A stretch of 31,155 bases of DNA, from the IMG/VR virus record IMGVR_UViG_3300020440_000048, positions 1 to 31,155 of that record. One strand, given 5' to 3'. This stretch comes from a virus (Duplodnaviria; Caudoviricetes). The notes beneath the pieces were generated by a model, which saw only the letters and a program-made list of their open reading frames with translations, ran no database searches and was not told where the DNA came from. The position numbers and the translations under genes are program-made. Every line of letters starts with the position of its first letter. The first letter of the stretch is position 1. Positions 1,985 through 30,429 of the stretch are shown one piece after another.

Positions 1985-2251
1985 ATGAACGTATCGACAA
2001 TTAAGAACGCAATGTTGACCATGACTCAATCAGAATTGAGTGAAATCATCCATATTGCAACTCAAATCAAATCGATTTCTGCAACTGCAACATTTTCTGT
2101 TGGTCAAGAAGTAATGGTTGTTCAGAAAACGAAATCAACCCCAGCAACTATCATTAAGATGAACCCCAAAAAGGCAGTAGTCGAAATGAACTGGCAAGGC
2201 CGAGGTATCTCAAAGGTTACCGTACCATATTCTATGTTAGAAGCCGCATAA
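1985..2251 (+). CDS. hypothetical protein with SH3/KOW-like C-terminal beta domain
   Basis: AAGGA RBS; FSVGQEVMV...ATIIKMNPKKAVV pattern; ends in -AA. Confidence 0.75.
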   Translation: MNVSTIKNAMLTMTQSELSEIIHIATQIKSISATATFSVGQEVMVVQKTKSTPATIIKMNPKKAVVEMNWQGRGISKVTVPYSMLEAA

Positions 2252-2260
2252 AACTTCTAG

Positions 2261-2334
2261 AGTGTGGTGACAGATCGGTTATGTGGCGGATTGCAAATCC
2301 GTTTAAGTGGGTTCGATTCCCACCCACACTTCCA
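2261..2334 (+). tRNA. tRNA-Cys(GCA)
   Basis: acceptor AGTGTGG/CCACACT, anticodon arm GCGGA-TTGCAAA-TCCGT, GGTTCGATTCC T arm, U discriminator, encoded CCA. Confidence 0.95.
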
Positions 2335-2360
2335 AAAAGTTTCAAAAAAGTCAAAATAAA

Positions 2361-2391
2361 GCTTGACATTTAGTCAATAGTCTGTTATGAT
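2361..2391 (+). promoter_or_regulatory. sigma70-like early promoter
   Basis: TTGACA-17 bp-TATGAT with extended -10 TG. Confidence 0.8.
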
Positions 2392-2424
2392 CATCATACA
2401 CTAAAGACTTAAAGGAAAAAACTT

Positions 2425-2574
2425 ATGAACTCAATTAACTATCTTATGGAAGCGAAAGGAATGGATCGTGAAGACGCCGAAATCGTAGACTACCTTATGC
2501 AAAGTAAGGGCATGTCCTATGAAGAGGCACTTGAGACCTCTCTCATGTTGCTTCAAATTCAAAACCAAAGTTAA
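2425..2574 (+). CDS. 49-aa hypothetical protein with internal repeat (not in the ORF track)
   Basis: AAGGA RBS after a promoter; MNSINYLMEAKGMDREDAEIVDYLMQSKGMSYEEALETSLMLLQIQNQS. Confidence 0.7.
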   Translation: MNSINYLMEAKGMDREDAEIVDYLMQSKGMSYEEALETSLMLLQIQNQS

Positions 2575-2604
2575 ACTTTTTACAGTAAAAAGTTTTCAGA
2601 AAAT

Positions 2605-2637
2605 GCTTGACATTAGTATAATACTTGTATATTATAA
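2605..2637 (+). promoter_or_regulatory. sigma70-like early promoter
   Basis: GCTTGACA followed by TGTATTATAAT. Confidence 0.75.
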
Positions 2638-2668
2638 TAGTGTAGGTAACAAAAAAGAAAGAAATCAA

Positions 2669-2875
2669 ATGACAACATTTTTCTCAACTTCAATGAATCA
2701 TTTATCAACTACAGCTAGTGGTGATAAATTTTTAGTGAGTTCTACGTTTGCTGGTTCTTCTGCTAATACTGAGGCAGAATCAGTTGCAAATGCGATTGCA
2801 GCTTATGAGAAAGCTGGTCTCACTGCTGATGAATTGATGTCCATTGAAACAGTTGAATTAGAAGATTTTGAATAA
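2669..2875 (+). CDS. hypothetical protein
   Basis: start reassigned to the ATG at 2669 (MTTFFST...), downstream of the 2605 promoter. Confidence 0.65.
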   Translation: MTTFFSTSMNHLSTTASGDKFLVSSTFAGSSANTEAESVANAIAAYEKAGLTADELMSIETVELEDFE

Positions 2876-2889
2876 TAATTGAAAAAAGT

Positions 2890-2920
2890 GCTTGACATCA
2901 GGCACTTTTTTTGTTATAGT
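2890..2920 (+). promoter_or_regulatory. sigma70-like early promoter embedded in a terminator-like inverted repeat
   Basis: TTGACA-17 bp-TATAGT with TG; inverted repeat AAAAAAGTGCTTGA/TCAGGCACTTTTTT. Confidence 0.75.
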
Positions 2921-2954
2921 GATCATATAAGTTAATGAAGTGAGGTTCTAAATT

Positions 2955-3350
2955 ATGGCATATATTGGACAAAAAGAGAAGAAGGAGTTAGCTCCTGCTA
3001 TCAAAAACGTCTTAAAAACTTACGGTATGAAAGGTTCTATCGGAATCGACAATCATTCATCTTTGGTTGTTAACGTCAAAGAGGGTGTTTTAGATTTTAC
3101 TGATCATTTCACTCATGGTGATGGTTATATCCAAGTCAACACCTATCATATTGACAATTGGTATTCTGGGACTATCAAAAACTTTTTGAATGACCTAGTA
3201 AAAGCAATGAAAGGTGCAAATTGGTACAACAATACTGATGCGATGATTGATTACTTTGACATTGCATACTATGTTGATATCAATATTGGAAAATGGAACA
3301 AACCCTATGTCCAAACAATGCAAAACCCTCATGTAAAGGTGGCCGCATAA
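2955..3350 (+). CDS. conserved phage hypothetical protein
   Basis: GAGG RBS; WYNNTDAMIDYFDIAYYVDINIGKWNKPY motif seen in phage early proteins; ends in -VAA. Confidence 0.8.
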   Translation: MAYIGQKEKKELAPAIKNVLKTYGMKGSIGIDNHSSLVVNVKEGVLDFTDHFTHGDGYIQVNTYHIDNWYSGTIKNFLNDLVKAMKGANWYNNTDAMIDYFDIAYYVDINIGKWNKPYVQTMQNPHVKVAA

Positions 3351-3712
3351 TGACACAAGTAGCAGTTATTCACACGGCATTTGAAGATAGTCCACGAACA
3401 GTTGCTTTAGTAGACGTTAATGAAGATATGTCAACTGAACAAAAATTGGAATATGCATATCGCTGGACTAATAATGTGATGGGTTCGTGGTCAATTAAAG
3501 AAAAATTCTTAAAAATCCGTGGAGACTTGATTGAGAATGGTGACTACAATGAAAGTGTCACAGTTATGACGGAATTGGAAAATGGTTTAGGTGTACGCTC
3601 GACATCGATGGGTGACCAGATGTTGTTAGGTACTACAAAATATAAAGTTGATATGGTTGGTTTCAAACCAATCGATGAGGAAGAGGATTTTGAATATCCT
3701 TGCCCTACTTAG
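3350..3712 (+). CDS. hypothetical protein
   Basis: TAATG coupling gives start 3350 (MTQVAV...); RSTSMGD motif. Confidence 0.75.
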   Translation: MTQVAVIHTAFEDSPRTVALVDVNEDMSTEQKLEYAYRWTNNVMGSWSIKEKFLKIRGDLIENGDYNESVTVMTELENGLGVRSTSMGDQMLLGTTKYKVDMVGFKPIDEEEDFEYPCPT

Positions 3713-3722
3713 AAGGAGAAAA

Positions 3723-3884
3723 ATGTTCGAAGTTTTTAATGCAAAACATGGTTATACTCATAGTGTTGGCCATACAACATTGGATGCAGCTATAAAGTCT
3801 GCTCTAAAGTCTGGTTTTGCATGTTCGATATTTAAGAGTGATGATCCATTTACGATAGTTAAATGGGTTTTCCCAAACAGTTAA
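3723..3884 (+). CDS. hypothetical protein
   Basis: AGGAG RBS before the ATG at 3723 (MFEVFN...). Confidence 0.65.
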   Translation: MFEVFNAKHGYTHSVGHTTLDAAIKSALKSGFACSIFKSDDPFTIVKWVFPNS

Positions 3885-3907
3885 AAATCTAGAAGTGACG
3901 GCTTCTA

Positions 3908-4066
3908 GATGTGGTGGCTGAAGAAGAGTTAAACGATGACTCTAAGGCATACACGAAGAAGGTTAGCGCCTTGTCTTAGCGGATGCAGTGTAGTTGGAAA
4001 GCGAGTATAGAATGGTAATCGTTCTGTGTGAGTACATGTAGGTAAACCCCAATCCTACCCACAACC
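3908..4066 (+). ncRNA. candidate tRNA-like structured RNA
   Basis: acceptor-like GATGTGG/CCACAAC, class II-type D arm TGGCTGAA...TAAGGC, T-stem-like GTAGG/CCTAC, extra hairpins. Confidence 0.55.
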
Positions 4067-4074
4067 TTAAATTT

Positions 4075-4151
4075 CGGGATATAGCGCAGTCTGGTAGCGC
4101 ATCTGCTTTGGGAGCAGAGGGTCGTTGGTTCGAATCCAGCTATCCCGACCA
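4075..4151 (+). tRNA. tRNA-Pro(TGG)
   Basis: CGGGATA/TATCCCG acceptor, TCTGC-TTTGGGA-GCAGA anticodon arm, GGTTCGAATCC, CCA. Confidence 0.97.
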
Positions 4152-4196
4152 GAATTGAGAATTTTTAAACATCTAAATAGATGATGGAGTTAAAAA

Positions 4197-4556
4197 ATGC
4201 CAAAACTTGCGAAGATGGAAGATACAGAACCATTCTCTATTGAATTTGGTACAGTTAATTATTATTCGAAACCAACTTACAAGGGATTGTGGATTGGTCA
4301 ACAAATAGTACTACAGTTTGGTGAATATGGTTATCAGTGTTCTGTTATAAATGATGGATACGGCGGTCAAAAAGGATTATTTGAAATTGGTGTTTTTGTA
4401 TATGATGAAGAGTCTTCAAAGTTTGACATGGCATCATTGCCTGGAGTTACACATGAAGATGATTCAGTTAGAGGATATTTGACAGAAGAAGAGATGACTT
4501 CTTTGTTGAAGAAAGTTTTTATTCTGAGTGGTGAAACTCCAATACAAATAAACTAA
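4197..4556 (+). CDS. conserved phage hypothetical protein
   Basis: GGAG RBS; YQCSVI..GYGGQKGLFEIGV and DDSVRGYLT motifs. Confidence 0.8.
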   Translation: MPKLAKMEDTEPFSIEFGTVNYYSKPTYKGLWIGQQIVLQFGEYGYQCSVINDGYGGQKGLFEIGVFVYDEESSKFDMASLPGVTHEDDSVRGYLTEEEMTSLLKKVFILSGETPIQIN

Positions 4557-4573
4557 AAAGAAAGGATGCCGTC

Positions 4574-4873
4574 ATGGATAAGGATGACACAAATAATGAT
4601 CCTTGTGATGATGTATCTGGTAAAGAAATGAGTGGATGGTTATCAAGTAACCCTACAGTTGTTCCGAAGTTAAAAGTACATGACAAATGTGGTACACCAG
4701 ATTGTTGTGGAGAATGTGAAACAGCTGATATATCTACAGTAAATGGATACCCAGATGTTCACAAAAACGAGTCGAGGGAAGGTTATTACGATTATATGCT
4801 AAGACGATATCGGGAAGAAAACGAAAAAGATGATATCGCAAAGGTGAAAACTGCCCTTAGCTCAACTGGATAG
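4574..4873 (+). CDS. hypothetical protein with HxxCGTPDCCGEC motif
   Basis: AAGGA RBS; Cys cluster; 3' end overlaps tRNA-Arg. Confidence 0.7.
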   Translation: MDKDDTNNDPCDDVSGKEMSGWLSSNPTVVPKLKVHDKCGTPDCCGECETADISTVNGYPDVHKNESREGYYDYMLRRYREENEKDDIAKVKTALSSTG

Positions 4874-4927
4874 AGCAACAGCCTTCTAAGCTGTAGGTTA
4901 CAGGTTCGACTCCTGTAGGGCAGGCCA
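4851..4927 (+). tRNA. tRNA-Arg(TCT)
   Basis: CTGCCCT/AGGGCAG acceptor, ACAGC-CTTCTAA-GCTGT anticodon arm, GGTTCGACTCC, CCA. Confidence 0.96.
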
Positions 4928-4944
4928 ATTTAGAGAGGAAGAAA

Positions 4945-5214
4945 ATGGACGTTAATAATCACATAATGCCTAATCCTATGATGTTGCATTACATAGACCA
5001 ACAACGAAGTAAAGCGTTGCAAGTTAAAGAACAACAAATGGTTCATCAAATGGAGAAACAAAATCAATTGAAACGACAATTCAAGTCGTGGCAAGAAAGA
5101 GTTGAGGAGTTGCAACATTATCTGCGTCAATTAGCGGTTGTAGAATATAATCGTGATGGTAGTAGAAAACTTCGTGAAATAGAACAAGGACAACTATTGG
5201 ACATTAAAGCATGA
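4945..5214 (+). CDS. hypothetical Gln-rich coiled-coil protein
   Basis: GAGG RBS, 89 aa. Confidence 0.7.
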   Translation: MDVNNHIMPNPMMLHYIDQQRSKALQVKEQQMVHQMEKQNQLKRQFKSWQERVEELQHYLRQLAVVEYNRDGSRKLREIEQGQLLDIKA

Positions 5215-5486
5215 AAACCTATATACATGTCAATCAACATGTTATTCGTGCAAATAAGAAACACGGCAAGGATGACCCTTGTATTACAGTAAAACGTGGA
5301 AAGACTAATACATATTGCCATGAAGTCGAAGTTCATGGGCCTTCGAAAGTAAGATATGATGGTGGAGAAAAACCAATTCTCTCTTGTGGTGCAAGAGTTG
5401 TTATAGAGACAAATTCTGATGTCGTGTGTATGACAAGGGATGTAGAGAAGGATGTCGAAATACATATACAAAACAGCACAACTTGA
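5211..5486 (+). CDS. conserved phage hypothetical protein
   Basis: IHVNQHVIRANKK...LSCGARVVIET motif; ATGA overlap. Confidence 0.8.
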   Translation: MKTYIHVNQHVIRANKKHGKDDPCITVKRGKTNTYCHEVEVHGPSKVRYDGGEKPILSCGARVVIETNSDVVCMTRDVEKDVEIHIQNSTT

Positions 5487-5676
5487 GAATAATGGAAGAT
5501 CTTCAACAGTCATAAAAGATGAAAGACTGTTATTTCAAGGTGATTCTTATGTCGCCATAATGATATTTATAAACGCATGTAACAATGCACCAGAAGTGAT
5601 AAAATGGTTTAAACCACAACTGGAACAACGTGAACATGCAAAGCACATGATAGAAAAGGCAAATGAGAGAAGATAA
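5452..5676 (+). CDS. hypothetical protein
   Basis: 74-aa ORF within an operon. Confidence 0.6.
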   Translation: MSKYIYKTAQLENNGRSSTVIKDERLLFQGDSYVAIMIFINACNNAPEVIKWFKPQLEQREHAKHMIEKANERR

Positions 5677-5679
5677 ATT

Positions 5680-6693
5680 ATGTTAATTTATGACGATACA
5701 AAATTAGATTACAATGATGTTCTTATCAGACCTAAAAGGTCAACTCTTACATCTCGTTTCGATGTAGACATGGATAGAACATATACTTTTTATCACAGTA
5801 AAAAAGAATGGACAGGAGTTCCAATCATGGCCAGTAATATGGATACGGTTGGAACTTTTGCTATGCACGATGCATTGTCCGAATTTGGAATGATAACATG
5901 TATTGCAAAACATAATAACTCAGACATCGATTTATGGGACAATATTACTTTAAAAAGAAATCGACTTTGTGCTATGGGTGGTATATCAGATTTTGATATT
6001 GACAATTTAGTACAATTAGATGATATTATTGAACCAGAGTTTCTTGGACTTGATGTTGCGAATGGTTATACAATCAGTTTTGTAGATGGTTTAAAGAGAT
6101 TAAGAGATAGATGTCCAAATGCAACAATTATTGCTGGTAATGTTGTAACTGCTGATATGACTTCTGAATTAATCCTTGCTGGTGCTGATATTGTAAAAGT
6201 AGGTGTTGGGCCTGGGTCTGTATGTACAACAAGAATTAAAACTGGAATTGGTTATCCACAATTGAGTGCTGTTATAGAATGTGCTGATGCAGCTCATGGG
6301 TTGGGTGGTCATATTATTGCAGATGGTGGATGTAATTCTTCTGGAGATATTGTAAAAGCTTTTGCTGGTGGTGCAGATTTCGTAATGATTGGTGGTATGT
6401 TATCTGGTCATGACCAGTGTGATGGTCAAATAGTAAATGGTAAGATGAAATTCTATGGAATGGCATCAGACTCTGCAATGGATAGACATCATGTTCCTCA
6501 TAGAGAATATCGTGGTGTTGAAGGAAAAACTGTAGAGGTAGAATATAAAGGGCCTGTTGAGAGTACTTTGATAGATGTCATGAGCGGGATTAGGTCTGCT
6601 TGTACCTATGTTGGTGCAAATAAATTAAAGTCTCTATCAAAATGCACTAGTTTTGTTCGTGTAAATAATACACACAATAAAATTTACGAATAA
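5680..6693 (+). CDS. guaC: GMP reductase
   Basis: DVLIRPKRSTL, PIMASNMDTVG, LDVANGY, KVGVGPGSVCTTR catalytic loop, IIADGG; no CBS domains. Confidence 0.93.
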   Translation: MLIYDDTKLDYNDVLIRPKRSTLTSRFDVDMDRTYTFYHSKKEWTGVPIMASNMDTVGTFAMHDALSEFGMITCIAKHNNSDIDLWDNITLKRNRLCAMGGISDFDIDNLVQLDDIIEPEFLGLDVANGYTISFVDGLKRLRDRCPNATIIAGNVVTADMTSELILAGADIVKVGVGPGSVCTTRIKTGIGYPQLSAVIECADAAHGLGGHIIADGGCNSSGDIVKAFAGGADFVMIGGMLSGHDQCDGQIVNGKMKFYGMASDSAMDRHHVPHREYRGVEGKTVEVEYKGPVESTLIDVMSGIRSACTYVGANKLKSLSKCTSFVRVNNTHNKIYE

Positions 6694-6701
6694 GGATAAC
6701 A

Positions 6702-6914
6702 ATGAGTTGGAAAAATTACGCAAAATGGTATAAGCAGAAGGATGCATGGCAACGAGCTCCAATGAAAGATAAAGATGCTGACCCAGATGATATAAACATC
6801 GATAACGCATATAAAACACGATGGATTTGGTATCACACTATTTTGGGAATACAATTGTTTATAATCATAATATTGCATATAGCAACATTTACTCTATTGG
6901 CAATAAAGTTATGA
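6702..6914 (+). CDS. small membrane protein
   Basis: AAGGA RBS, C-terminal hydrophobic helix. Confidence 0.7.
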   Translation: MSWKNYAKWYKQKDAWQRAPMKDKDADPDDINIDNAYKTRWIWYHTILGIQLFIIIILHIATFTLLAIKL

Positions 6915-6981
6915 TGATGGAATGTTTCATAATAGGTTGTTTTTTCTTCATAGGGGGATATTTGGTAGGGAGTTTAAGTAA

Positions 6982-7164
6982 ATGAGTAGAAGTAAATTAT
7001 TAAATCATGTAAAAGCACTTCAAGAAGAAGTTGGGATATTAACAAATAAACTACAAAACCAACATATAGAAGTAGAATGCTTCTATCTTGATTCTGCAAT
7101 AAGAGTTTTGAACGAAAGAATTATAGAGTGTCAAAAAGAATTAGAAGCTTCTATCCCCCAGTAA
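6982..7164 (+). CDS. hypothetical coiled-coil protein
   Basis: GGAG RBS, 60 aa. Confidence 0.6.
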   Translation: MSRSKLLNHVKALQEEVGILTNKLQNQHIEVECFYLDSAIRVLNERIIECQKELEASIPQ

Positions 7165-7289
7165 CATATCCATCATGTGTTGGATTGTGTGGAGTCAAAG
7201 TTGGGTGGAGATGGAAGAATTACGAGATTTGGAACGATAGGACTCATAGGATTGTTCCAATGTGGGCAAGATACTTGCCAATAAAATGG

Positions 7290-7318
7290 TTGACTTTTAG
7301 CGAAAAAGGAGTTAAACT
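7290..7318 (+). promoter_or_regulatory. sigma70-like promoter of the tmRNA precursor
   Basis: TTGACT-17 bp-TAAACT just upstream of the acceptor piece. Confidence 0.7.
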
Positions 7319-7324
7319 AAATAT

Positions 7325-7388
7325 GAGTGTTCGGTGAAGCAATCTGAACTTAAACTGGACTTGGGTGCAATTCCCAACTCCTCCACCA
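7325..7388 (+). ncRNA. ssrA: permuted tmRNA, acceptor piece (5' end approximate)
   Basis: GGAC + T arm TTGGG-TGCAATT-CCCAA + CTCCTCC-A-CCA. Confidence 0.9.
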
Positions 7389-7401
7389 TAAGGACACTAT
7401 A

Positions 7402-7674
7402 ATGGAACACAACGAAGAACACGGCGACATCATAGAAATGTCTCAGACTATAGGAGACAATTTTTCTGGTACAAAAGAAATTAATATTGGGGGTAACGGC
7501 CCAGAAGGAGATGTTCAAGCAACTTTAGAGTTTGTAGAACATATCTATAATTATCTTCCAGAACTTGGTTTTGCCACAATATATGGTCTTATCGTATATG
7601 CAGCTGTTCTTTGGATTAGTAGAACCATAAACAATAAATCTTGTAACTGTAAAGATTGTGATTGTTGTGAATAG
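7402..7674 (+). CDS. membrane protein encoded inside the tmRNA intervening segment
   Basis: AAGGA RBS right after the CCA; 90 aa; acidic N-terminus, one TM helix, CNCKDCDCCE tail. Confidence 0.75.
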   Translation: MEHNEEHGDIIEMSQTIGDNFSGTKEINIGGNGPEGDVQATLEFVEHIYNYLPELGFATIYGLIVYAAVLWISRTINNKSCNCKDCDCCE

Positions 7675-7684
7675 TGTTTTTATG

Positions 7685-7857
7685 GGGGGAGAGTTAGGAT
7701 CGACAGGTAAGGTAGGAAAGTGGAGAACTGGTGTGCAAGCTACCATAAACGTAAGAAAAAAACTAAATGCAAACGATAACTTTGCTCCTGTGGATTTTGC
7801 TCTAGCAGCATAATCTAACGGCGTATGAGATCCACGTGGCAACAGAACGGTCTCACT
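7685..7857 (+). ncRNA. ssrA: permuted tmRNA, coding piece (3' end approximate)
   Basis: GGGGGAG pairs with CTCCTCC giving G3-U70; AGGATCGAC D-loop region; tag frame 7769-7813 ANDNFAPVDFALAA*. Confidence 0.92.
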
Positions 7858-7871
7858 TAATTTCATAACAT

Positions 7872-7902
7872 GCTTGACATTTAGTCTATAGTCTGTTACG
7901 AT
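7872..7902 (+). promoter_or_regulatory. sigma70-like early promoter
   Basis: TTGACA-17 bp-TACGAT; 32/34 identical to the promoter at 2361. Confidence 0.75.
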
Positions 7903-7954
7903 CATTATATCATCAATGAAGGTGATTAATTTGTCATGTTACAAAGGAGAATAT

Positions 7955-8218
7955 ATGACTACTCAAACTGAAACCCAAGCAACTAAGGTTGCAAATGCAC
8001 TGATGGGTGGTGCTGAACTAACTGCAAAACAAATTTCATACCGATATGGTGTAAAGAATGTTCGTGCCGTTATTAGTAAACTACGTTCTGAAGGTTATTC
8101 GATTTATCTGAACAACCGTACATCATCTTTTGATGGTCAGTCCTATAAGAAGTATCGTCTAGGTGCTCCGACTAGGGAAGTAGTAGCAGCTGGTTATGCG
8201 GCCCTTCGCTCTGCCTAA
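7955..8218 (+). CDS. winged helix-turn-helix DNA-binding protein
   Basis: AAGGAG RBS before the ATG at 7955; LTAKQIS...VRAVISKLRSEGYSIY pattern. Confidence 0.75.
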   Translation: MTTQTETQATKVANALMGGAELTAKQISYRYGVKNVRAVISKLRSEGYSIYLNNRTSSFDGQSYKKYRLGAPTREVVAAGYAALRSA

Positions 8219-8302
8219 CTGAAACTAGCGTATGGGCTCCACCATGTACATGATACTAAACGGGCCCACTTTCAAAACTTTAAAATAAGAAAGGCAAAAG
8301 TT

Positions 8303-8731
8303 ATGAAAAAACTTTTATCGACTACGATTTTACTGACTATGTTTTCTACAACAGTATTTGCAGAAGACAAAACCATCGAAATGTTAAATAAACGTGATGA
8401 TGGTGCAAAAATGGTATACAGTGAAGACATCACTCGTATTGATGTTGGAGATACCATTACTTGGTTACCTACTAGTAAAGGACACAATGTAGAATTTAAA
8501 GTAGGGCCAAACGGATATGAGCTTCCTAAGAAGAGTAAAAATAACAAAGAAGTTGAAATTACTTTTGATACGCCTGGAATTTACTTATATCAGTGTACAC
8601 CACATGCTACAATGGGCATGATTGCTCTTGTAATTGTAGGTGATGATACCTCAAACAAAATGGCTATTGCAAAGTCAAAGGTAAGAGGGAAGTCCAAGAA
8701 GAAACTGAAAAAACTTCTTGATAGTATTTAA
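8303..8731 (+). CDS. pseudoazurin/plastocyanin-family blue copper protein
   Basis: signal peptide; type 1 Cu ligands GHNVEF and CTPHATMGM; IEMLNK...GAKMVY N-terminus typical of pseudoazurin. Confidence 0.9.
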   Translation: MKKLLSTTILLTMFSTTVFAEDKTIEMLNKRDDGAKMVYSEDITRIDVGDTITWLPTSKGHNVEFKVGPNGYELPKKSKNNKEVEITFDTPGIYLYQCTPHATMGMIALVIVGDDTSNKMAIAKSKVRGKSKKKLKKLLDSI

Positions 8732-8743
8732 TAGGAGAAAAAT

Positions 8744-9007
8744 ATGTTTGACCCAGAAGATTTAGAAGATGGCGAACCAACATTAAAAGAAATGTATGAT
8801 ATGTATCTTTCTATGTGCAATCTCTTTATTGAAGGTCAAGGTAAAAGTCCTATGGAAGTAGCAGCCATTTTACAATGTATTGCTACTTCCCTATATAAAT
8901 CATGTTTATCAACTCAAGATTTTGAAAAAATCATGAAACACATGTATGATAGTCGCAATCTTGTAGAGCACATGGTCTACAGACCCGAAAACGAGAGGAT
9001 TCATTGA
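8744..9007 (+). CDS. hypothetical protein
   Basis: AGGAG RBS, 87 aa. Confidence 0.75.
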   Translation: MFDPEDLEDGEPTLKEMYDMYLSMCNLFIEGQGKSPMEVAAILQCIATSLYKSCLSTQDFEKIMKHMYDSRNLVEHMVYRPENERIH

Positions 9008-9237
9008 AGGAAGTAACCTATCAAGTACACCTATGGGACGAATTGCCAAGAATCGGGTCTGGATTTAGACTAGTAGTAGTAAAAGAAGGACGAAAATGGG
9101 TTTATGTTAGGTCTTATTCACCAGTAGAATATCCCCAGTATCAAAAGAAACAAAAAATTCATAAAAAAATATGGGAAAAAATTAAGATGAATAAATCGAC
9201 AAGAGTTTTTGATGAAAAAAATAGTCCCAGACAATAG
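9004..9237 (+). CDS. hypothetical protein
   Basis: TTG start overlapping the upstream stop, GAGG RBS; GRKWVYV motif. Confidence 0.65.
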   Translation: MKEVTYQVHLWDELPRIGSGFRLVVVKEGRKWVYVRSYSPVEYPQYQKKQKIHKKIWEKIKMNKSTRVFDEKNSPRQ

Positions 9238-9448
9238 ATTGCCCCAAGGGTATCGAATTGAAGATATGACTACAGAAGAAATAATGGATGATTTCTTTTC
9301 AGATTATCCAAATGTTCCAAATCCAGAAAATTACCCAAAAGTATTTCAGTGGCATGTCCAAATGTGGGCATACCACAAGGAGAGAAAGCTCAAGGATGAG
9401 ATGACAAATTTTAAACGAGATAAATATTCTGATGGAACACGTTGGTGA
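9209..9448 (+). CDS. hypothetical protein
   Basis: 79-aa ORF, PNPENYPKVF motif. Confidence 0.65.
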   Translation: MMKKIVPDNRLPQGYRIEDMTTEEIMDDFFSDYPNVPNPENYPKVFQWHVQMWAYHKERKLKDEMTNFKRDKYSDGTRW

Positions 9449-9480
9449 TTCTTATTTATTCATAATAGAAAGACAGTACA

Positions 9481-9771
9481 ATGCAGTGGGTAATATTATT
9501 ATATGCGTTTCTAGAGTATCCAGATGGTTCTTTAGAGAAAGTGGTTAGTAGAAATTTACCGTTTCAGACTTACAATCAGTGTGAACAGTTCTATTACCAA
9601 AACAAAGACAATTTAATTCCAGGCGTAATAGATTACAGTAAAACATATAATGGTGAAAAGCTTAATCTTATAGAAATGGGATGTTCAAAAGCTGAAGTGG
9701 TGAAGCCTGGTCAACCTATTCCAGAACCAACAGGATTTAAACCATTATACAGATTGGGAACGAATACATGA
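9481..9771 (+). CDS. small exported hypothetical protein (two Cys)
   Basis: hydrophobic N-terminus, FQTYNQC motif. Confidence 0.7.
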   Translation: MQWVILLYAFLEYPDGSLEKVVSRNLPFQTYNQCEQFYYQNKDNLIPGVIDYSKTYNGEKLNLIEMGCSKAEVVKPGQPIPEPTGFKPLYRLGTNT

Positions 9772-9920
9772 TATACAAAGTAATAGAAATTTTAGCTGAA
9801 CAAGAAAATCGAAATAAGAGACCAGATAAATCTGCTGATGCTTTTGATTTATTTCCAGCCGTAATCTTTGTTATTGCAATTTTAGGATTAGTGTTTATGA
9901 TTGCTCCAATGGCGTTATAA
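9768..9920 (+). CDS. 50-aa membrane protein (not in the ORF track)
   Basis: ATGA overlap; MIYKVIEIL...FPAVIFVIAILGLVFMIAPMAL. Confidence 0.6.
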   Translation: MIYKVIEILAEQENRNKRPDKSADAFDLFPAVIFVIAILGLVFMIAPMAL

Positions 9921-9980
9921 CCATATATGAACATCATATATATTATTCCCAAATGTCATGCAAAAAAATCATAAAAGTTT

Positions 9981-9988
9981 TATAAATA
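9981..9988 (+). promoter_or_regulatory. T4-type late promoter
   Basis: intergenic TATAAATA followed by the hairpin TGATTGAAGA/TCTTCAATCA. Confidence 0.65.
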
Positions 9989-10046
9989 TTCAGTGATTGA
10001 AGAATCCGTCTTCAATCAATTTTCCAACAATTAGGAGTAAAAAGTT

Positions 10047-10187
10047 ATGAGTGCCGCCGTGGCGTATATTTATGAGCGTAGTTGCAAGTTCTGTGATGCA
10101 ATATCAGATTGGGTTCAGTTGTTCCTTTATCTAGCCATTCCCCTTGGTCTACCGTTCTTTATCATTTGGATGAGTTCACAAACATAA
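10047..10187 (+). CDS. 46-aa membrane protein (not in the ORF track)
   Basis: AGGAG RBS; MSAAVAYIYERSCKFCDAISDWVQLFLYLAIPLGLPFFIIWMSSQT. Confidence 0.65.
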   Translation: MSAAVAYIYERSCKFCDAISDWVQLFLYLAIPLGLPFFIIWMSSQT

Positions 10188-10204
10188 TAAAATCTATCAA
10201 AAAT

Positions 10205-10236
10205 GCTTGACATTTATCCCCTTGTGTGTTATTATA
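10205..10236 (+). promoter_or_regulatory. sigma70-like early promoter
   Basis: TTGACA-17 bp-TATTAT with TG. Confidence 0.75.
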
Positions 10237-10269
10237 CCCTAGTATTAATAATCAATAGAGGACAAAAGA

Positions 10270-10500
10270 ATGATTCGCACCAAAGATCCGCTCACTGAAC
10301 GAGAATTAGTTATCGATTTGGATGGGCCTCAAGGTAATGCTTTCTTTCTACTAGGTCAAGCATCACGATTTGCAAGACAATTAGGTATGGACGCAAACGA
10401 AATTATCGAAGAAATGAAGTCTGGAGACTACGAGAACCTTATCTCAGTCTTTGATAAGTTCTTTGGTGATTTCGTTGTTCTTGAGCGAAGTGCTTCATGA
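10270..10500 (+). CDS. conserved phage hypothetical protein
   Basis: GAGG RBS; IDLDGPQGNAFFLLG...MKSGDYENL motif. Confidence 0.8.
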   Translation: MIRTKDPLTERELVIDLDGPQGNAFFLLGQASRFARQLGMDANEIIEEMKSGDYENLISVFDKFFGDFVVLERSAS

Positions 10501-10913
10501 TACTATCATATGTGGTGGATGAAAATATCCAACACGCCCCTCTCAACAATCCAGAGTCTGGAATTAATTTTCCAGACTCACCAAGGTATGTCTGTACCAC
10601 ACAGTTATATAAGGCGCTGGGTTGTTGGGATGGGCCCTTTGATATCTTCTATCTGGATAAACATCAAGAATATATTGGTGTAGATAAGGATGGATGGGAT
10701 GGAGTCATCCATTTTAAAAAGGAATACATTGAGAGTTTACCTTTTGGAATGATACGAGATGAATATGGATTGTGGTGGTATGCACAATGCCATGATGATA
10801 GTCTCTTTATTGATGGAAACTGGATAACTGGTCACAGAGATAAAGAGAGTATACGAGGAAGTGATGACTATTCTGTATTTTACTTACACGAAGGTCGATT
10901 TAAATATATGTAG
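10497..10913 (+). CDS. hypothetical protein
   Basis: 138-aa ORF, ATGA overlap. Confidence 0.7.
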   Translation: MILSYVVDENIQHAPLNNPESGINFPDSPRYVCTTQLYKALGCWDGPFDIFYLDKHQEYIGVDKDGWDGVIHFKKEYIESLPFGMIRDEYGLWWYAQCHDDSLFIDGNWITGHRDKESIRGSDDYSVFYLHEGRFKYM

Positions 10914-10929
10914 GAAAGGATAACCAACA

Positions 10930-11244
10930 ATGGGCACGATTAACTATGTCGGATCTCTACGTTACGATATACATGGACGTAAGAGGAAAACAAAATCTCT
11001 AAATAAACCGAAGCCTCTGAAAACGAAAGGAGTATCGGTACATACAGAACTCATGGATGAGAAGATGAAGGAACATCGAATTAAATATCCAAGTTCAAAT
11101 AGTATGAATGGTTCTACTGCAAAGAAAGAACAACATGTGTATACTGGAGATTTAATAGTCGGTATTGCTACAATGCATAAATCAAATGCAGTTCCTGTAA
11201 TGAACAAACAACAAGCGAAAGACATTTCTCGTATGGGAAAGTAA
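10930..11244 (+). CDS. conserved basic phage hypothetical protein
   Basis: AAGGA RBS; YTG...GIATMHKSNAVPV motif. Confidence 0.8.
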   Translation: MGTINYVGSLRYDIHGRKRKTKSLNKPKPLKTKGVSVHTELMDEKMKEHRIKYPSSNSMNGSTAKKEQHVYTGDLIVGIATMHKSNAVPVMNKQQAKDISRMGK

Positions 11245-11405
11245 TGAAAACGATGTGGAAAGTCTGGAAATATAGTCTTGGTTCATTTAGCGATGAAGAG
11301 ACAAAGAACTATGATAATCACATAGCAGTTGTTCGCACCTGTATTGTTCTGGTTAATTTCGTCACATGTTTTTTTATCATGTCGAATATAGTGAAGAATT
11401 GGTAG
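11244..11405 (+). CDS. 53-aa membrane protein (not in the ORF track)
   Basis: TAATG coupling; MKTMWKVWKYSLGSFSDEETKNYDNHIAVVRTCIVLVNFVTCFFIMSNIVKNW. Confidence 0.7.
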   Translation: MKTMWKVWKYSLGSFSDEETKNYDNHIAVVRTCIVLVNFVTCFFIMSNIVKNW

Positions 11406-11409
11406 ATGC

Positions 11410-11844
11410 ATGAAGGTACATACACTCTTTGGTGAAGAGATATTTCAATCTAAAAAATGTAGAGAATGTGGAGTCGAAAAACCTTTCACTGATTTTGGAT
11501 ATCGCAATCACACTAAAAACAAACCTGAGCTTCTGAATACTTGCAGAGAATGTAAGAGTATTCATGATAAGATTGTAAGGGATTTCAAGAAAAGTAATGC
11601 AAAACCAGATTCGCATTACAAATGCCCAGTATGCAAGGAGACATCTGAAGAAATACGAAGTCGAGGGGGATTTCATTCTCATCAACCCAAGGATGTCTGG
11701 TGTGTCGATGTCTGTCATGATGAAATGCGAGTGAGGGGATGGATTTGCGATTACTGTAATAACATGATAGGTAGGAGTCTGGATAGACCAGACGTTTTGA
11801 GGGAAGGGGCACTATGGATAGAACAATTTAAAAAGGAGGCATAA
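11410..11844 (+). CDS. endonuclease VII-like (His-Me finger) nuclease / homing endonuclease-like protein
   Basis: N-terminal CxxC pairs; CPVC...VDVCH..VRGWICDYCNNMIG. Confidence 0.8.
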   Translation: MKVHTLFGEEIFQSKKCRECGVEKPFTDFGYRNHTKNKPELLNTCRECKSIHDKIVRDFKKSNAKPDSHYKCPVCKETSEEIRSRGGFHSHQPKDVWCVDVCHDEMRVRGWICDYCNNMIGRSLDRPDVLREGALWIEQFKKEA

Positions 11845-11847
11845 TGT

Positions 11848-12069
11848 ATGTCAGATTTACCACTTGCAGACCAAATATTTTGGTTTATATTTTGTGGTTT
11901 AGTAGGTGTTATCGTTTTAGCACTTAAATACCAATACTATAAAAACTTAACGATAAAGGAAAAGGAGAAACATTGGTTCTCCACATTTGTTAATAAAACA
12001 CTTGGCGGTAAAGAAAATAAAATATATGATAAGTACAACGTCAAGTACAATGACAAAGACAACACATAG
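11848..12069 (+). CDS. membrane protein
   Basis: GGAGG RBS, N-terminal TM helix. Confidence 0.7.
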   Translation: MSDLPLADQIFWFIFCGLVGVIVLALKYQYYKNLTIKEKEKHWFSTFVNKTLGGKENKIYDKYNVKYNDKDNT

Positions 12070-12090
12070 AAAGGATAGTAGAGTTTCAAG

Positions 12091-12291
12091 ATGGACGAGT
12101 ATAAAGCAGAAAATATGGTTCTGAGTAGAGAGGATGAAAAAGAAATTGAATACGCTCATGCCATGACAGGAGAGCCTGTTGAAAAACTTGCACAATGGCG
12201 TAAAGAAAAGATTGCAGAAGATTTAAATGATTATCTTAAAAAAAGAAATGATATGGTTTCTAAATTTGCAATGAGGAGAGTGTACGAATGA
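12091..12291 (+). CDS. hypothetical protein
   Basis: 66-aa ORF within an operon. Confidence 0.6.
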   Translation: MDEYKAENMVLSREDEKEIEYAHAMTGEPVEKLAQWRKEKIAEDLNDYLKKRNDMVSKFAMRRVYE

Positions 12292-12536
12292 TGTTAGAAC
12301 TTGCCTTAGGAAGTATGATGGCATGTAGACTCTCTGGACAAGAGATAAAAGGATGGGATACAGAATATAGTGAAGCAAAAAGAATTTGTTATTATTCATG
12401 TCCCGATAGTACTAAAGACCAACATAGTACATTGAAACAGTATTCATGTCCACAAACACTAAACGTGGATAGACCCCCACTTCCATTTAAAGACCAGAAG
12501 AAAAGGTCGAAGTGGACAAAAGAATACAAAAATTAA
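12288..12536 (+). CDS. hypothetical Cys-containing protein
   Basis: GAGGAG RBS, four Cys. Confidence 0.65.
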   Translation: MMLELALGSMMACRLSGQEIKGWDTEYSEAKRICYYSCPDSTKDQHSTLKQYSCPQTLNVDRPPLPFKDQKKRSKWTKEYKN

Positions 12537-12550
12537 GAAAGGAAAGAAAG

Positions 12551-12913
12551 ATGAGAGAGTGGATATATGATAGCTGGAATTGTGTGATGAACGCAGATAT
12601 CAGTCCATTGAGAAATATTCCAGATACGATGGTACGCCATATGGTATTGCAAATACTCGCATGGATGTGGTGTATCGCATTTTCAATGATTATAGGAAGT
12701 TTCGTAGTGTTCGGAATTAGTATGATTGCTCATGTAGTACTATTAGCTGCAATAGCAATCACAGTAGGAGCCTTTGAGGTTGCAGAGAAACAACCACAAT
12801 TCTTTATGGATAAATTTCCACATTCCACTCCAAGTCGGGCGAGACATAATATGTGGGTAGATGGTGAGAAGATTGTTCTAGATAAGGATGATAAGGGTGG
12901 AGAACATGAGTAA
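12551..12913 (+). CDS. membrane protein
   Basis: start reassigned to 12551 (MREWIYDSW...); two TM helices. Confidence 0.75.
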   Translation: MREWIYDSWNCVMNADISPLRNIPDTMVRHMVLQILAWMWCIAFSMIIGSFVVFGISMIAHVVLLAAIAITVGAFEVAEKQPQFFMDKFPHSTPSRARHNMWVDGEKIVLDKDDKGGEHE

Positions 12914-13009
12914 AAATCAAAATTCACAAAGTAAAGGACTAATATTAACTTTCGTCTTAGCCTTTACTGCAACTATAGTGTGGCATGCCCTGACAGCATG
13001 AGTAATCTA

Positions 13010-13044
13010 ACCCATATTACTCCACAAATTCCCACATAATCCCA
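13010..13044 (-). repeat. four TGGRN pentamers at an exact 10-bp period (MraZ-box-like)
   Basis: minus strand reads TGGGA-ttatg-TGGGA-atttg-TGGAG-taata-TGGGT. Confidence 0.6.
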
Positions 13045-13149
13045 AAATGGGGTGCAGAAACGTAAAATTGAGTATGCCACTTAATCTGCGCCCAATTTTC
13101 CAAAAGAAAAAAAGTTTCTTCAAAAAATATCGAATTAATTTAAAAAAAG

Positions 13150-13180
13150 GCTTGACAAACGCTCAGATATGCTGTATAAT
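13150..13180 (+). promoter_or_regulatory. strong sigma70-like promoter
   Basis: A-tract UP element, TTGACA ... TGTATAAT. Confidence 0.8.
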
Positions 13181-13225
13181 GACCCTGTAGGTCTTTAAGA
13201 ATATTAATAAGAAGCTTAAATTAAT

Positions 13226-13256
13226 GCTTGACACTTCAGAGAGTATATGATATACT
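13226..13256 (+). promoter_or_regulatory. sigma70-like promoter
   Basis: TTGACA-17 bp-TATACT with TG; predicted +1 near 13263. Confidence 0.8.
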
Positions 13257-13262
13257 GTTTAT

Positions 13263-13354
13263 AGTCAATTGGGATGTGGCCTTGTAGTAATATGAGGCCT
13301 CCATCGGAAGCTCGAGACTATGCAAATCCTAGTGTCCCATCCCAATTGACTCCA
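13263..13354 (+). ncRNA. candidate ~92-nt small RNA
   Basis: perfect 14-bp terminal stem AGTCAATTGGGATG/CATCCCAATTGACT followed by CCA; internal hairpins; lies between two promoters. Confidence 0.65.
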
Positions 13355-13361
13355 ATAAAAG

Positions 13362-13397
13362 GCTTGACAAACCAATAGAAGTATTGTATAGTATAAT
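13362..13397 (+). promoter_or_regulatory. sigma70-like promoter
   Basis: GCTTGACA ... TGTATAGTATAAT. Confidence 0.75.
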
Positions 13398-13425
13398 CTA
13401 ATGGTAATTAATTATGGAGTTACAT

Positions 13426-13770
13426 ATGCTTAAATCATCTCAGATAGCCTCAAAGATTCAGAGTCTATGTGACCAGAAAGGCTGGACATATAATGTTAGA
13501 AATAATATTCTTTCAATATCAAAACCTTTTACTCCTCATAACATGGATGAGCTTATCGATTGTGATATGGAGTACTATGGTATATTATCAGAACTGCCTC
13601 GTTGCAGAGCTGGTTCTGATTGGGGTACAGAATGTGGCGGAGTTGGTGCCATCCAAGCACTGAATGACGGCATCTTCGTTATGAATCGCTCCGGCGGTAA
13701 TAAAAATGTTTTGAAGCTACTTGCGAAGGCATCACATCCAGCTTCGAAGCTACTTGCGAAGGAGATTTAG
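13426..13770 (+). CDS. hypothetical protein
   Basis: GGAG RBS before the ATG at 13426; 17-bp direct repeat near the 3' end. Confidence 0.75.
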   Translation: MLKSSQIASKIQSLCDQKGWTYNVRNNILSISKPFTPHNMDELIDCDMEYYGILSELPRCRAGSDWGTECGGVGAIQALNDGIFVMNRSGGNKNVLKLLAKASHPASKLLAKEI

Positions 13771-13808
13771 CTATGACTTGGGTTTATTAAAACTAAACAA
13801 CAACACTT

Positions 13809-14198
13809 GGGGTATCGAATTAAAATAATCTAATTCGGTATCCCTAACTATAGAATTACAAAGAAGAGTTAGACAATGTAAAAAAGTCGCTCGCAGACGC
13901 TTCTGCTAGACCTCTTAGAGAACTGTAATGAACTTGTATGGAAGCTACCATGCTTGTGTCTCTCTAAGAGGTCTTGGTGAGCCGACTCGTAATCCCCCCC
14001 CTCTAATACTGGCTTGTAACTTTATAATTTAAGGTTCACTTAGAGTGGTGTGGTCGGTCTTCTAGACGCACCCCATCAAATTTACTTACTCTGTAGAGTA
14101 AAAAGCGATAATTTACTTTGTAGAGTAAATTTGGTGGAGAACCCCCCCAAATTCTGGAGTGGTATCCAAACGAATACCATTTCAAAATTTTTTTTGGG
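13809..14198 (+). other. ORF-free, hairpin-dense intergenic region
   Basis: at least five stems including a perfect 14-bp AGACCTCTTAGAGA/TCTCTAAGAGGTCT. Confidence 0.5.
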
Positions 14199-15382: not shown

Positions 15383-15802
15383 ATGACACAGAAACTGAAT
15401 GAACGACTTCATTGGACAACAGTAATGACAGAAAAGATAATGCTAGGTGGGATAGGTTGTCTCACAGTACTCGCTGCTTGTCTGGATGTCTATGATATAT
15501 TTTTAGAACGTAATATTGAACTTGCAGATTTGTTTCTCTTGTTCATATACACAGAAATAGTCGGCATGGTTGGTGCGTATTACATTAGTAATCGTATTCC
15601 AGTAACACTACCGATTATCATTGCCATGACTGCACTATGTAGATTGATTGTTCTACACAGTAAGGATGGTGAACCAATGACACTGATAGCAGAAGCAGGG
15701 GCGATTGCAATTCTCGCTGGTGCTGCTTATCTTATGAGTGTGAAAGATAAACTCTCTTTAGAGAAAGCGAAACTGAGAAAGGAAAGAAATGAAACTGAGT
15801 GA
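15383..15802 (+). CDS. psiE: phosphate-starvation-inducible PsiE-family membrane protein
   Basis: LADLFLLFIYTEIVGMV...RIPVTLPIIIAMTALCRLIVL signature. Confidence 0.85.
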   Translation: MTQKLNERLHWTTVMTEKIMLGGIGCLTVLAACLDVYDIFLERNIELADLFLLFIYTEIVGMVGAYYISNRIPVTLPIIIAMTALCRLIVLHSKDGEPMTLIAEAGAIAILAGAAYLMSVKDKLSLEKAKLRKERNETE

Positions 15803-21343: not shown

Positions 21344-22126
21344 GTGACTATATTACGAGAAGAATTTCAAAAATATTCGTCTATTGATTCTACATCTACA
21401 TATAACAAGTTAGTTGCTAAACAACTGGCATTGTTTTGTGCATTGGTATATCGAACAGACGATAAAAAATTTGTAGAAAATGTTCTGCTCCATTGGGGTT
21501 GTCAAAGAGTAAAACTATTTGACAATGAAGGCACAGAAGCTATGTGCATAAAAAAGGACAATAATATTATTCTTTCTTTCAGAGGAACAGAACCCAACGA
21601 ACTTTCAGATATCTTAGCAGATATTAATATTATTCCCAAAAAAGCTGCAAATGAAAAACAAGGTCTAGTGCATAGTGGATTTGCAGAGGCCTTAGATAAG
21701 ATTTGGCCTAATGTACAAACTTTTCTTGATAGTATATACGAAGATGGAAACTGTATATACATATGTGGTCACAGTTTAGGTGGTGCATTGGCAATGGTTG
21801 CAGCTGCGAGGTCTAAGTATATTTGCCAAGTATATACATATGGACAACCAAGAGTTGGAAGCACAAAGTACTCAAAAAATATAAAGTCTAAAATGTATCG
21901 TCATATAAGAGGTTGTGATATAGTTCCAAGTGTACCATTCCCTATTATATATCATCATACAGGCGACATAAAAGTTGTTGACAAGCACACTAAAATAGTG
22001 TATGATGTACACGATTATGTGCGTTTAGGCGGTATAAGATTTTTACAATTTATAAGGAATATAATATCACCATCAAAATATGTTGGTGACCACGATATAC
22101 TTGGATACTATAGCGATATTAATTAG
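21344..22126 (+). CDS. class 3 lipase (alpha/beta hydrolase)
   Basis: SFRGTE, VHSGF, GHSLGGALA, YTYGQPRVG, DIVPSVP, C-terminal DH. Confidence 0.9.
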   Translation: MTILREEFQKYSSIDSTSTYNKLVAKQLALFCALVYRTDDKKFVENVLLHWGCQRVKLFDNEGTEAMCIKKDNNIILSFRGTEPNELSDILADINIIPKKAANEKQGLVHSGFAEALDKIWPNVQTFLDSIYEDGNCIYICGHSLGGALAMVAAARSKYICQVYTYGQPRVGSTKYSKNIKSKMYRHIRGCDIVPSVPFPIIYHHTGDIKVVDKHTKIVYDVHDYVRLGGIRFLQFIRNIISPSKYVGDHDILGYYSDIN

Positions 22127-30126: not shown

Positions 30127-30178
30127 GTATATGTCCATATCCTTGGACACCATAAGTCATGGTTGAAAAGACTACACT

Positions 30179-30230
30179 CGTTCATTCACTTTACAGTGAA
30201 CGGAAGTAGGCAATTCTGCTGAAGGAACGC
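30179..30230 (+). ncRNA. Downstream-peptide / glutamine-II riboswitch aptamer
   Basis: CGTTC-AT-[TCACT/AGTGA]-ACGGAAGTAG-[GCA/TGC]-TGAAG-GAACG matches my recollection of the motif; a YRG peptide follows. Confidence 0.85.
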
Positions 30231-30258
30231 ATCTCTACGACTATCAAGGAGATGTCTT

Positions 30259-30429
30259 ATGACTATCAAGCAATACAGAGGCGTTACATACACTGCTAAA
30301 ACCATAGAAGAGGTTTCTAATCCTCAATCTTTATGCTATCGTGGTGTTAAATATAATTCTACAGATATTAATCACAATACTCCAGTAGCTAAATCTGGAA
30401 TATATCGTGGGTTTAAATGGTCTGTGTGA
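30259..30429 (+). CDS. DUF4278-like 56-aa peptide with three YRG repeats (not in the ORF track)
   Basis: AAGGAG RBS; MTIKQYRGVTY...LCYRGVKY...GIYRGFKWSV. Confidence 0.85.
   Translation: MTIKQYRGVTYTAKTIEEVSNPQSLCYRGVKYNSTDINHNTPVAKSGIYRGFKWSV

Follow-up and report, generated by a model that had tools for sequence, protein, structure and literature searches.

Between positions 7329 and 7857 of the window, by which I mean the whole 31,155-nt stretch of viral DNA analysed here (a 31-kb virus record, estimated to be 18% complete), lies a tmRNA gene in two pieces, and the intervening segment that separates them (the spacer) contains a 90-codon open reading frame (ORF; Table 1). ARAGORN calls the gene as a permuted tmRNA with the tag ANDNFAPVDFALAA, and two covariance models score above their cut-offs with the whole insert spanned: RF04321 at 89.7 bits (cut-off 47), which places the insert between CCA and G1, and RF01849 at 70.2 bits (cut-off 50). 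These scores, together with the position of the acceptor piece upstream of the coding piece, identify a permuted alpha-type tmRNA. The same class is indicated by the T arm, the discriminator A, the CCA and the acceptor stem, in which 7685-7691 and 7378-7384 form seven of seven pairs with G7687-U7382 as the G3-U70 pair, and by a tag reading frame with a hydrophobic C-terminus of the ALAA type. Helix 2, read directly from the sequence, pairs 7704-7711 with 7349-7357. The gene is not an intron-form tmRNA: no group I intron model matched at E values up to 1, and the T loop is intact.

Table 1. Features of the tmRNA locus, in positions of the window
Feature	Position	Strand	Remarks
Predicted composite promoter	7290..7323	+	sigma-70-type -35 at 7290-7295, -10 at 7313-7318
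T4-late-like box ACTAAATA	7316-7323	+	overlaps the sigma-70-type promoter
Acceptor piece	7329..7388	+	helix-2 strand, T arm 7361-7377, acceptor 3' strand 7378-7384
Discriminator A and CCA	7385-7388	+	CCA at 7386-7388
Spacer (intervening segment)	7389..7684	+	296 nt
Closing stem, 5' arm	7387..7400	+	last CA of CCA and SD-like AAGGA 7390-7394
Nested ORF	7402..7674	+	90 aa
Closing stem, 3' arm	7671..7684	+	ORF stop TAG 7672-7674; ends at the predicted RNase P site 7684/7685
Coding piece	7685..7857	+	acceptor 5' strand 7685-7691, tag frame 7769-7813, 3' structure to about 7857
Promoter-like site of next gene	7874..7902	+	10/12 match, extended -10

The ORF takes up 273 of the 296 nt of the spacer, an extent rarely matched in 300 dinucleotide shuffles (p = 0.003), and leaves 10 nt between its stop codon and the coding piece. 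Codon use is phage-like in this frame only (+0.21, versus -0.13 to -0.79 in the other five). The architecture given in a preliminary description of this DNA, namely a permuted two-piece tmRNA with a 7-bp G3-U70 acceptor stem, T arm, CCA and helix 2 and a 90-codon ORF filling its spacer, was thus recovered in full.

From the tRNA-like geometry, RNase P would be expected to cleave at 7684/7685; the 5' end of the precursor was taken as about 7325, an assumed position. The next gene (7916-8218) encodes a winged-helix protein, and the promoter-like site in front of it likely marks the end of the tmRNA unit. Two other metagenome assemblies are identical to the locus over 4270 nt and may derive from the window's own sample; a third keeps the layout at 89% overall identity. 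An assembly artefact as the source of the nested layout was rejected. The closest other tmRNA body is only 73% identical, and therefore no sister of the window lineage with an empty spacer was found. A search for kin with the window's own acceptor sequence gave one locus, which is not a tmRNA.

The nested ORF belongs to a family of free-standing phage genes

Homologues of the nested ORF number 11 in the protein collection, and 344 stretches of viral contigs match it. The best 80 of these 344, one more viral locus and seven metagenome loci make up a set of 88 free-standing homologue loci. None of the 88 has a tmRNA nearby, by ARAGORN or by blastn with all collected tmRNA pieces; Rfam models run on 20 of the 88 gave no tmRNA either, and in 77 of the 88 the flank is long enough to exclude nesting. 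The family thus occurs away from tmRNA genes, and the nested ORF is therefore likely to be a captured phage gene. In six comparisons over a 37-codon core, pS was 0.54-0.90 and pN 0.07-0.19, values that mark the family's members as genuine phage genes. L323-L325 keep the frame intact; the window's nested copy differs from that of L325 by three synonymous and two non-synonymous changes, too few to judge selection.

The encoded protein has an acidic, disordered N-terminus (net charge -11) and a conserved helix. Its one hydrophobic stretch gives a predicted membrane span at residues 55-73 (mean hydropathy 1.88), and the AlphaFold model consists of one long helix (residues 37-80) behind a disordered N-terminus. 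It is likely to be a single-span accessory protein of the inner membrane, with the acidic end predicted outside and the basic end inside. It has no PHROG and no Pfam match (one of 12 family members gave a weak, unrelated Pfam match), the ESM Atlas returned unnamed matches below 0.9, and no match was found in cultured phages. The Cys-rich tail CNCKDCDCCE, singled out in the preliminary description, occurs in one of 56 free-standing homologue proteins (a set that includes one truncated protein and one mis-extracted entry) and is not a feature of the family; the tail as a family-defining metal site was rejected on the same count.

A conserved stem closes the spacer

A feature absent from the preliminary description came to light in the follow-up: the two ends of the spacer pair with each other. 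The two arms form 14 consecutive pairs, which also appear in a free fold, and the nested ORF is the loop of this closing stem, with the Shine-Dalgarno-like (SD) motif in the 5' arm and the stop codon in the 3' arm. Both G of AAGGA pair with U, the start codon stands 7 nt behind the SD, and acceptor stem and closing stem together make about 21 near-continuous pairs.

Eighty-five of 89 viral spacers of at least 100 nt show at least eight of ten stem pairs at one fixed register. No slid register reaches this in more than 4 of the 89, and these include the window and its allele, which have a leader 2 nt shorter. In the unselected viral sample described below, 412 of 440 stem cells are paired, against 314 ± 8 when the 3' arms are re-dealt; neither these counts nor the preceding ones are phylogenetically independent. 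C-G, G-C, U-A and G-U alternate at the same stem columns across relatives. The closing stem is conserved by pairing, not by sequence. The same hairpin is found in short viral spacers devoid of an ORF and in 49 of 94 bacterial spacers, and the stem therefore predates the cargo.

Ensemble folding, that is, equilibrium prediction on truncated transcripts with the start assumed at 7325, gives a probability of 0.45-0.57 that the SD is unpaired in transcripts ending at 7450-7660, of 0.00 in transcripts ending from 7684 on, and of 0.02 in the released spacer. The unconstrained minimum-energy fold lacks the T arm and lies 3.3 kcal/mol below the tRNA-like fold. UGAU ends 127 of 154 viral spacers. In the window, the leader before G1 is 2 nt (UG, 7683-7684), which can still pair with the CA of CCA; 85 of 89 relatives have 2 nt more of unpaired leader, and processing in the window may therefore differ. 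In the unselected sample, an SD-like motif lies within the first 18 nt in 10 of 16 ORF families as against 4 of 63 ORF-less spacers; the other 6 of the 16 families have no such motif in the arm.

Spacers of phage tmRNA genes carry exchangeable cargo

To obtain viral spacers unselected for their own sequence, loci were collected by the coding-piece pattern alone. The search returned 119 of about 500 loci, of which 110 were resolved; the other nine had short flanks or, in the one inspected, a short spacer. The median spacer length over the 110 is 85 nt. Among the 99 unique spacers 29 are of 150 nt or more, and 28 of these 29 are filled by an ORF, so that the nested layout of the window recurs when spacer length and content are compared across related phages. 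In bacteria, a scan of 120 of about 2900 loci (108 resolved, 104 unique spacers) gave a median of 30 nt, and none of the 104 reached 150 nt; six unresolved bacterial loci with full flanks have short spacers by eye. For Caulobacter, an intervening segment of 14 nt was given in the preliminary description.

As a second bacterial control, RF04321 was run over 151 and 101 genomes, from the class and the order of an alphaproteobacterial genome. Scores above the cut-off were obtained in 146 and 96, and the longest among the matches listed measured 343 and 397 nt, compared with 485 nt in the window, figures from stricter filters that may lose long weak matches. Of the 21 longest bacterial matches 20 were fetched (the 21st is L218); these 20 have spacers of about 80-185 nt, many of them palindromic, and none has both an SD-like motif and a filling ORF. 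Two bacterial spacers of about 180 nt, L444 and L453, consist of palindromic repeats with no SD-led ORF.

A second viral sample, picked by a window-like spacer start (103 loci, 76 resolved), added 53 unique spacers; being biased, it was used for families only. The spacer ORFs of both samples fall into 29 protein clusters, most of them without a known family; an HNH endonuclease and a DUF2061-like protein are among their products. The median pairwise dN/dS while nested is 0.10-0.26 in five families of 3-15 members (the pairs are not independent), a range that indicates purifying selection on the larger spacer ORF families. A four-member ORF cluster in 85-nt spacers had a dN/dS of 0.62 and was dropped from the 29.

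Among 79 spacer ORFs, the stop codon is the conserved leader's TGA in 41 and a TAG in the arm in 17, while 13 run past the cleavage site into the coding piece; 30 of 32 ORF-bearing spacers have the stop within their last 17 nt. Unrelated spacer proteins (L029, L336, L375, L419 and others) share a C-terminal VSL or MSL because the 3' stem arm and the leader encode it.

Comparison of tmRNA bodies with their cargo suggests rapid turnover. L356, with an ORF in a 140-nt spacer, and L358, with a spacer of 28 nt, have tmRNA bodies that are 100% identical; L029 and L095 (98% identical) differ by the presence or absence of an ORF, as do bodies that are 96% identical, and L350 and L369 (94% identical) carry different ORFs. 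Conversely, one ORF family rides on tmRNA bodies as little as 48% alike. The spacer is a general cargo slot in phages, whose cargo is gained and lost fast between near-identical tmRNAs.

Single loci illustrate the range of contents. An HNH endonuclease gene (L017:1301-1612, minus strand; phrog_2255, E = 2e-25) fills a 327-nt spacer, and tmRNA bodies 91-93% identical to L017 are without it; it may be a homing element that uses the spacer as a shelter. A complete tRNA-Arg(TCT) gene (L092:196-272) lies inside a viral permuted tmRNA spacer of 110 nt. The 499-nt spacer of L012 contains two ORFs, the second of which shares 60% identity over 120 aa with a gene that stands free elsewhere in the window (12512-12913); the same family is therefore found both nested and free. 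In L365 a 40-nt spacer has kept both arms and the start codon, and its relatives L334 and L341 have a 140-nt spacer with a 45-codon ORF, which looks like a clean loss of cargo. Four spacers of 110-152 nt (L046, L059, L079 and L110) are apparently structured, with no filling ORF and no Rfam match of their own at the gathering score; it is possible that they are small RNAs of a new kind.

Transcription of the locus

A promoter had been placed at 7290-7318. The site matches the consensus at only 9 of 12 positions, and eight such sites were found in the window where 5.1 are expected, but related phage tmRNA genes have the same promoter motif at the equivalent position. The motif derived from these phages has a single match at the window locus, the upstream site, and none in the window spacer. 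It occurs in 1 of 51 long spacers (1.2 ± 1.1 expected); its upstream count of 39 of 51 is circular, the motif having been derived from upstream regions. Of 151 related viral tmRNA genes, 85 are preceded by the sequence TATAAATA, which I take to be the T4 late promoter box; none of 58 long spacers contains it. Read as a T4 late box, it suggests both early and late transcription of the tmRNA gene. An internal promoter at 7524-7551, within the ORF, was considered and rejected: a sigma-70-like match of 10/12 is no more than chance would give, and the phage-derived motif is not matched there. No terminator-like site was found on the plus strand at the locus. Both tmRNA pieces and the ORF would accordingly be carried by one joint precursor.

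Contigs from 7 of at least 24 sequencing runs were compared, 6 of them on record as RNA. In five of the six RNA runs a contig bridges the CCA into the ORF; these contigs begin at 7153-7287, ahead of the promoter, and could stem from DNA or read-through. Their ends vary, and across the rest of 2000-14000 coverage is patchy at a similar depth (8-11 of 30 bins). Among the contigs listed, none of the window genome bridges 7684/7685 with 31 letters on both sides, an observation not used as evidence. The differences listed within the ORF are substitutions, with no stops or indels.

Proposed mechanism and its alternatives

I propose that the spacer is a stem-closed loop holding a captured phage gene that is translated from the nascent precursor and is then shut off and destroyed at processing, a reading that I consider probable. 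A single precursor would be made from the promoter upstream of the acceptor piece. Before the 3' arm is transcribed, ribosomes would load on the ORF while the SD is open, which folding predicts to be the case about half of the time. About 280 nt after the SD, the closing stem would form, blocking new initiation and bringing the two tmRNA pieces into the tRNA-like fold. By analogy with known tRNA and tmRNA processing, RNase P would then cut at 7684/7685, another 3' nuclease would make the CCA end, and the spacer would decay; RNase P and tRNase Z have been named as the probable enzymes for permuted precursors (PMC3985003). RNase III might also act on the long helix, as it does on rRNA intervening sequences. 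The cargo would obtain a strong tmRNA promoter and a brief pulse of translation per transcript, at little cost to the tmRNA because the stem keeps the two pieces together whatever the loop holds. As part of this reading, the coupling of translation to processing is probably a built-in by-product.

Two proposals had been made in the preliminary description, that expression of the ORF is coupled to tmRNA processing and, alternatively, that the spacer is a neutral site for cargo. From the former, a real nested gene and, by inference, a joint precursor are retained; purposeful coupling fits less well. The latter is right as to cargo (29 clusters, swaps, free-standing kin) and not as to neutrality, given purifying selection and an SD-like motif that mostly accompanies an ORF. 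The cargo reading is preferred over deliberate coupling because the family is free-standing elsewhere, the cargo is swapped or lost, and 29 clusters use the slot. That maturation releases an mRNA, as had also been suggested, is unlikely since the SD is predicted to stay paired in the released spacer.

How do other readings fare? Ribosomes on the ORF might melt the stem and cover the RNase P site, putting translation in competition with tmRNA maturation, so that the amount of tmRNA or of cargo protein would be set by the translational state of the cell. Such a selected switch would make sense of an SD and a stop codon that both lie in stem arms, of stops so regularly placed near the spacer end (30 of 32), and of the 13 of 79 ORFs that run past the cleavage site and would become non-stop messages. 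It is nevertheless unlikely: cargo is unrelated between phages and is lost or swapped between near-identical tmRNAs, one family has members stopping before and after the cleavage site, and the conserved UGAU leader and the arm's own UAG account for stop codons in the arm; moreover the stem, present also in short ORF-less viral spacers and in about half of the bacterial ones, predates the cargo. I regard it as quite improbable that the ORF, though a real gene, fell silent after its arrival in the loop, like the S23p ORF of Coxiella. The precedent of the Coxiella 23S rRNA intervening sequence (PMC4990558), the fully paired SD predicted for the finished precursor and the small number of changes between nested alleles, too few to show selection, would all be compatible with a silent passenger; yet the frame is intact in L323-L325, the RNA-run contigs differ in the ORF by substitutions without stops or indels, the start codon stands 7 nt behind an SD, and other spacer-resident families show dN/dS of 0.10-0.26 while nested.

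Release of the spacer, or of an acceptor-plus-spacer intermediate, as a stable mRNA serving as the main protein template is likewise improbable. The contigs reaching from the CCA into the ORF in five of six RNA runs, and the lack of one across 7684/7685 with 31 letters on both sides among those listed, could be read in this way; however, these contigs begin upstream of the promoter and end at varied places and so show no processing, both arms stay in the released spacer with the SD predicted paired (0.02 unpaired), and trimming the 3' arm to free the SD would remove the stop codon. It is very improbable that each tmRNA piece has its own transcript and that the two anneal in trans, with the ORF as an ordinary gene between them. 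The 10/12 sigma-70-like site at 7524-7551 that speaks for this is at chance level and is without the phage-derived motif, that motif is no more frequent in long spacers than expected (1 of 51) and TATAAATA is absent from all 58, no terminator-like site interrupts the plus strand, and a covarying stem joins both spacer ends. The preferred reading of a captured gene translated from the nascent precursor also has a stronger form, in which marine T4-like phages use the spacer as a plug-in expression cassette and the passage of ribosomes through the stem governs how fast the tmRNA matures; I consider this form rather unlikely. If it were true, the closing stem would supply the SD and often the stop, any small gene in the loop would get a self-limiting pulse of translation, and translation load would be linked by feedback to ribosome rescue.

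Under the preferred reading, a stable-RNA precursor likely doubles as an mRNA, and one stem would both hold the tmRNA pieces together and gate translation of whatever the loop contains. The slot is a hotspot of gene swapping that accommodates at least 29 protein clusters, the majority belonging to no known family. Its occupants form a class of small phage genes liable to be lost in annotation, since they overlap a called tmRNA. The processing of permuted tmRNA precursors and the need for the closing stem become testable, and a cultured phage-host pair with the same architecture is available in Methylophilales phage Melnitz on OM43 strain H5P1.

Relation to known systems

Two-piece tmRNAs have been described in phages, for example in the marine myophage Melnitz (PMC9004378). 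The window gene shares with the permuted tmRNAs of Alphaproteobacteria and of Melnitz the piece order, the G3-U70 stem, the T arm, the CCA, a tag ending in ALAA and, by inference, the single precursor; it differs from the bacterial genes in that its spacer is 296 nt long and contains a protein gene, as against a bacterial median of 30 nt. Melnitz itself (L321:1359-1500) has a 142-nt spacer with the same closing stem and an SD, and its 54-codon ORF extends 42 nt into the coding piece. Over 26 residues this ORF shares 46% identity with the first of the two ORFs in the L012 spacer; the GenBank record has no CDS there and skips locus tags 87 and 88, and the word "intervening" does not occur in the Melnitz paper (PMC9004378). 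Pelagibacter phage HTVC008M (L437:1139-1480) has a permuted tmRNA with the tag ANFNEYALAA and a 49-nt spacer without an ORF. It is not annotated in the GenBank record, and the same holds for phages RpAliso, vB_RpoS-V10 and RcXuper.

Large inserts in the intervening sequence have been reported by Nawrocki, Petrov and Williams (2025, PMC11915505), whose tmRNA database holds 79 phage sequences: one tRNA-Ala gene and one repetitive element. The tolerance of the spacer for large inserts is thus common to both studies, as the tRNA-Arg gene in L092 illustrates; by contrast, no protein gene in a spacer is reported in the parts of that article consulted, and a search of the accessible supplement for one found none.

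A close parallel is the 23S rRNA intervening sequence of Coxiella and Leptospira, which contains the S23p ORF, reported as probably not made in vivo (PMC4990558). There too, complementary borders form a stem from which an ORF is looped out, and the loop is cut from a stable-RNA precursor without religation; the window locus would work in the same way. It differs in its host RNA, a tmRNA, in its many unrelated cargo families as against one, and in that several of these appear to be under purifying selection; RNase III excises the rRNA insert, whereas the enzyme is here only predicted. The S23p family itself is not involved: the window ORF has no Pfam family, and 0 of 28 other spacer ORFs match S23p. 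Homing endonuclease genes of group I introns, including those in intron-form tmRNA (PMC11915505), likewise shelter in a discarded part of a precursor, and the HNH gene of L017 resembles them; here, however, there is neither intron nor splicing, and most cargo is not a nuclease. A literature search found no description of protein genes in tmRNA spacers, a result on which primary papers on two-piece tmRNAs may bear. Protein genes in phage tmRNA spacers are thus apparently a widespread and undescribed phage habit.

The phage and its other genes

The window encodes a T4-type single-strand binding protein, a helicase loader, a late transcription regulator, an exonuclease, PhoH, endolysins and a tail fibre, and therefore comes from a T4-like phage. 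DNA nearly identical to it is present in marine metagenomes and in seawater RNA runs. The tmRNA is of the alphaproteobacterial type. No smpB gene was found in the 31-kb record (estimated 18% complete), and the tmRNA partner SmpB is assumed to be supplied by the host.

Other features of the window include a manA RNA motif at 3891-4068 (53.1 bits, just below the cut-off of 55.2; E = 5e-11), directly upstream of tRNA-Pro (4075-4151), and a glutamine riboswitch at 30177-30429 (56.8 bits) upstream of a gene for a 56-aa DUF4278 protein. Its auxiliary genes encode a protein with a GMP reductase/IMPDH domain (5680-6693), a copper protein of the plastocyanin/azurin type (8303-8731), PsiE (15383-15802) and a class 3 lipase (21344-22126).
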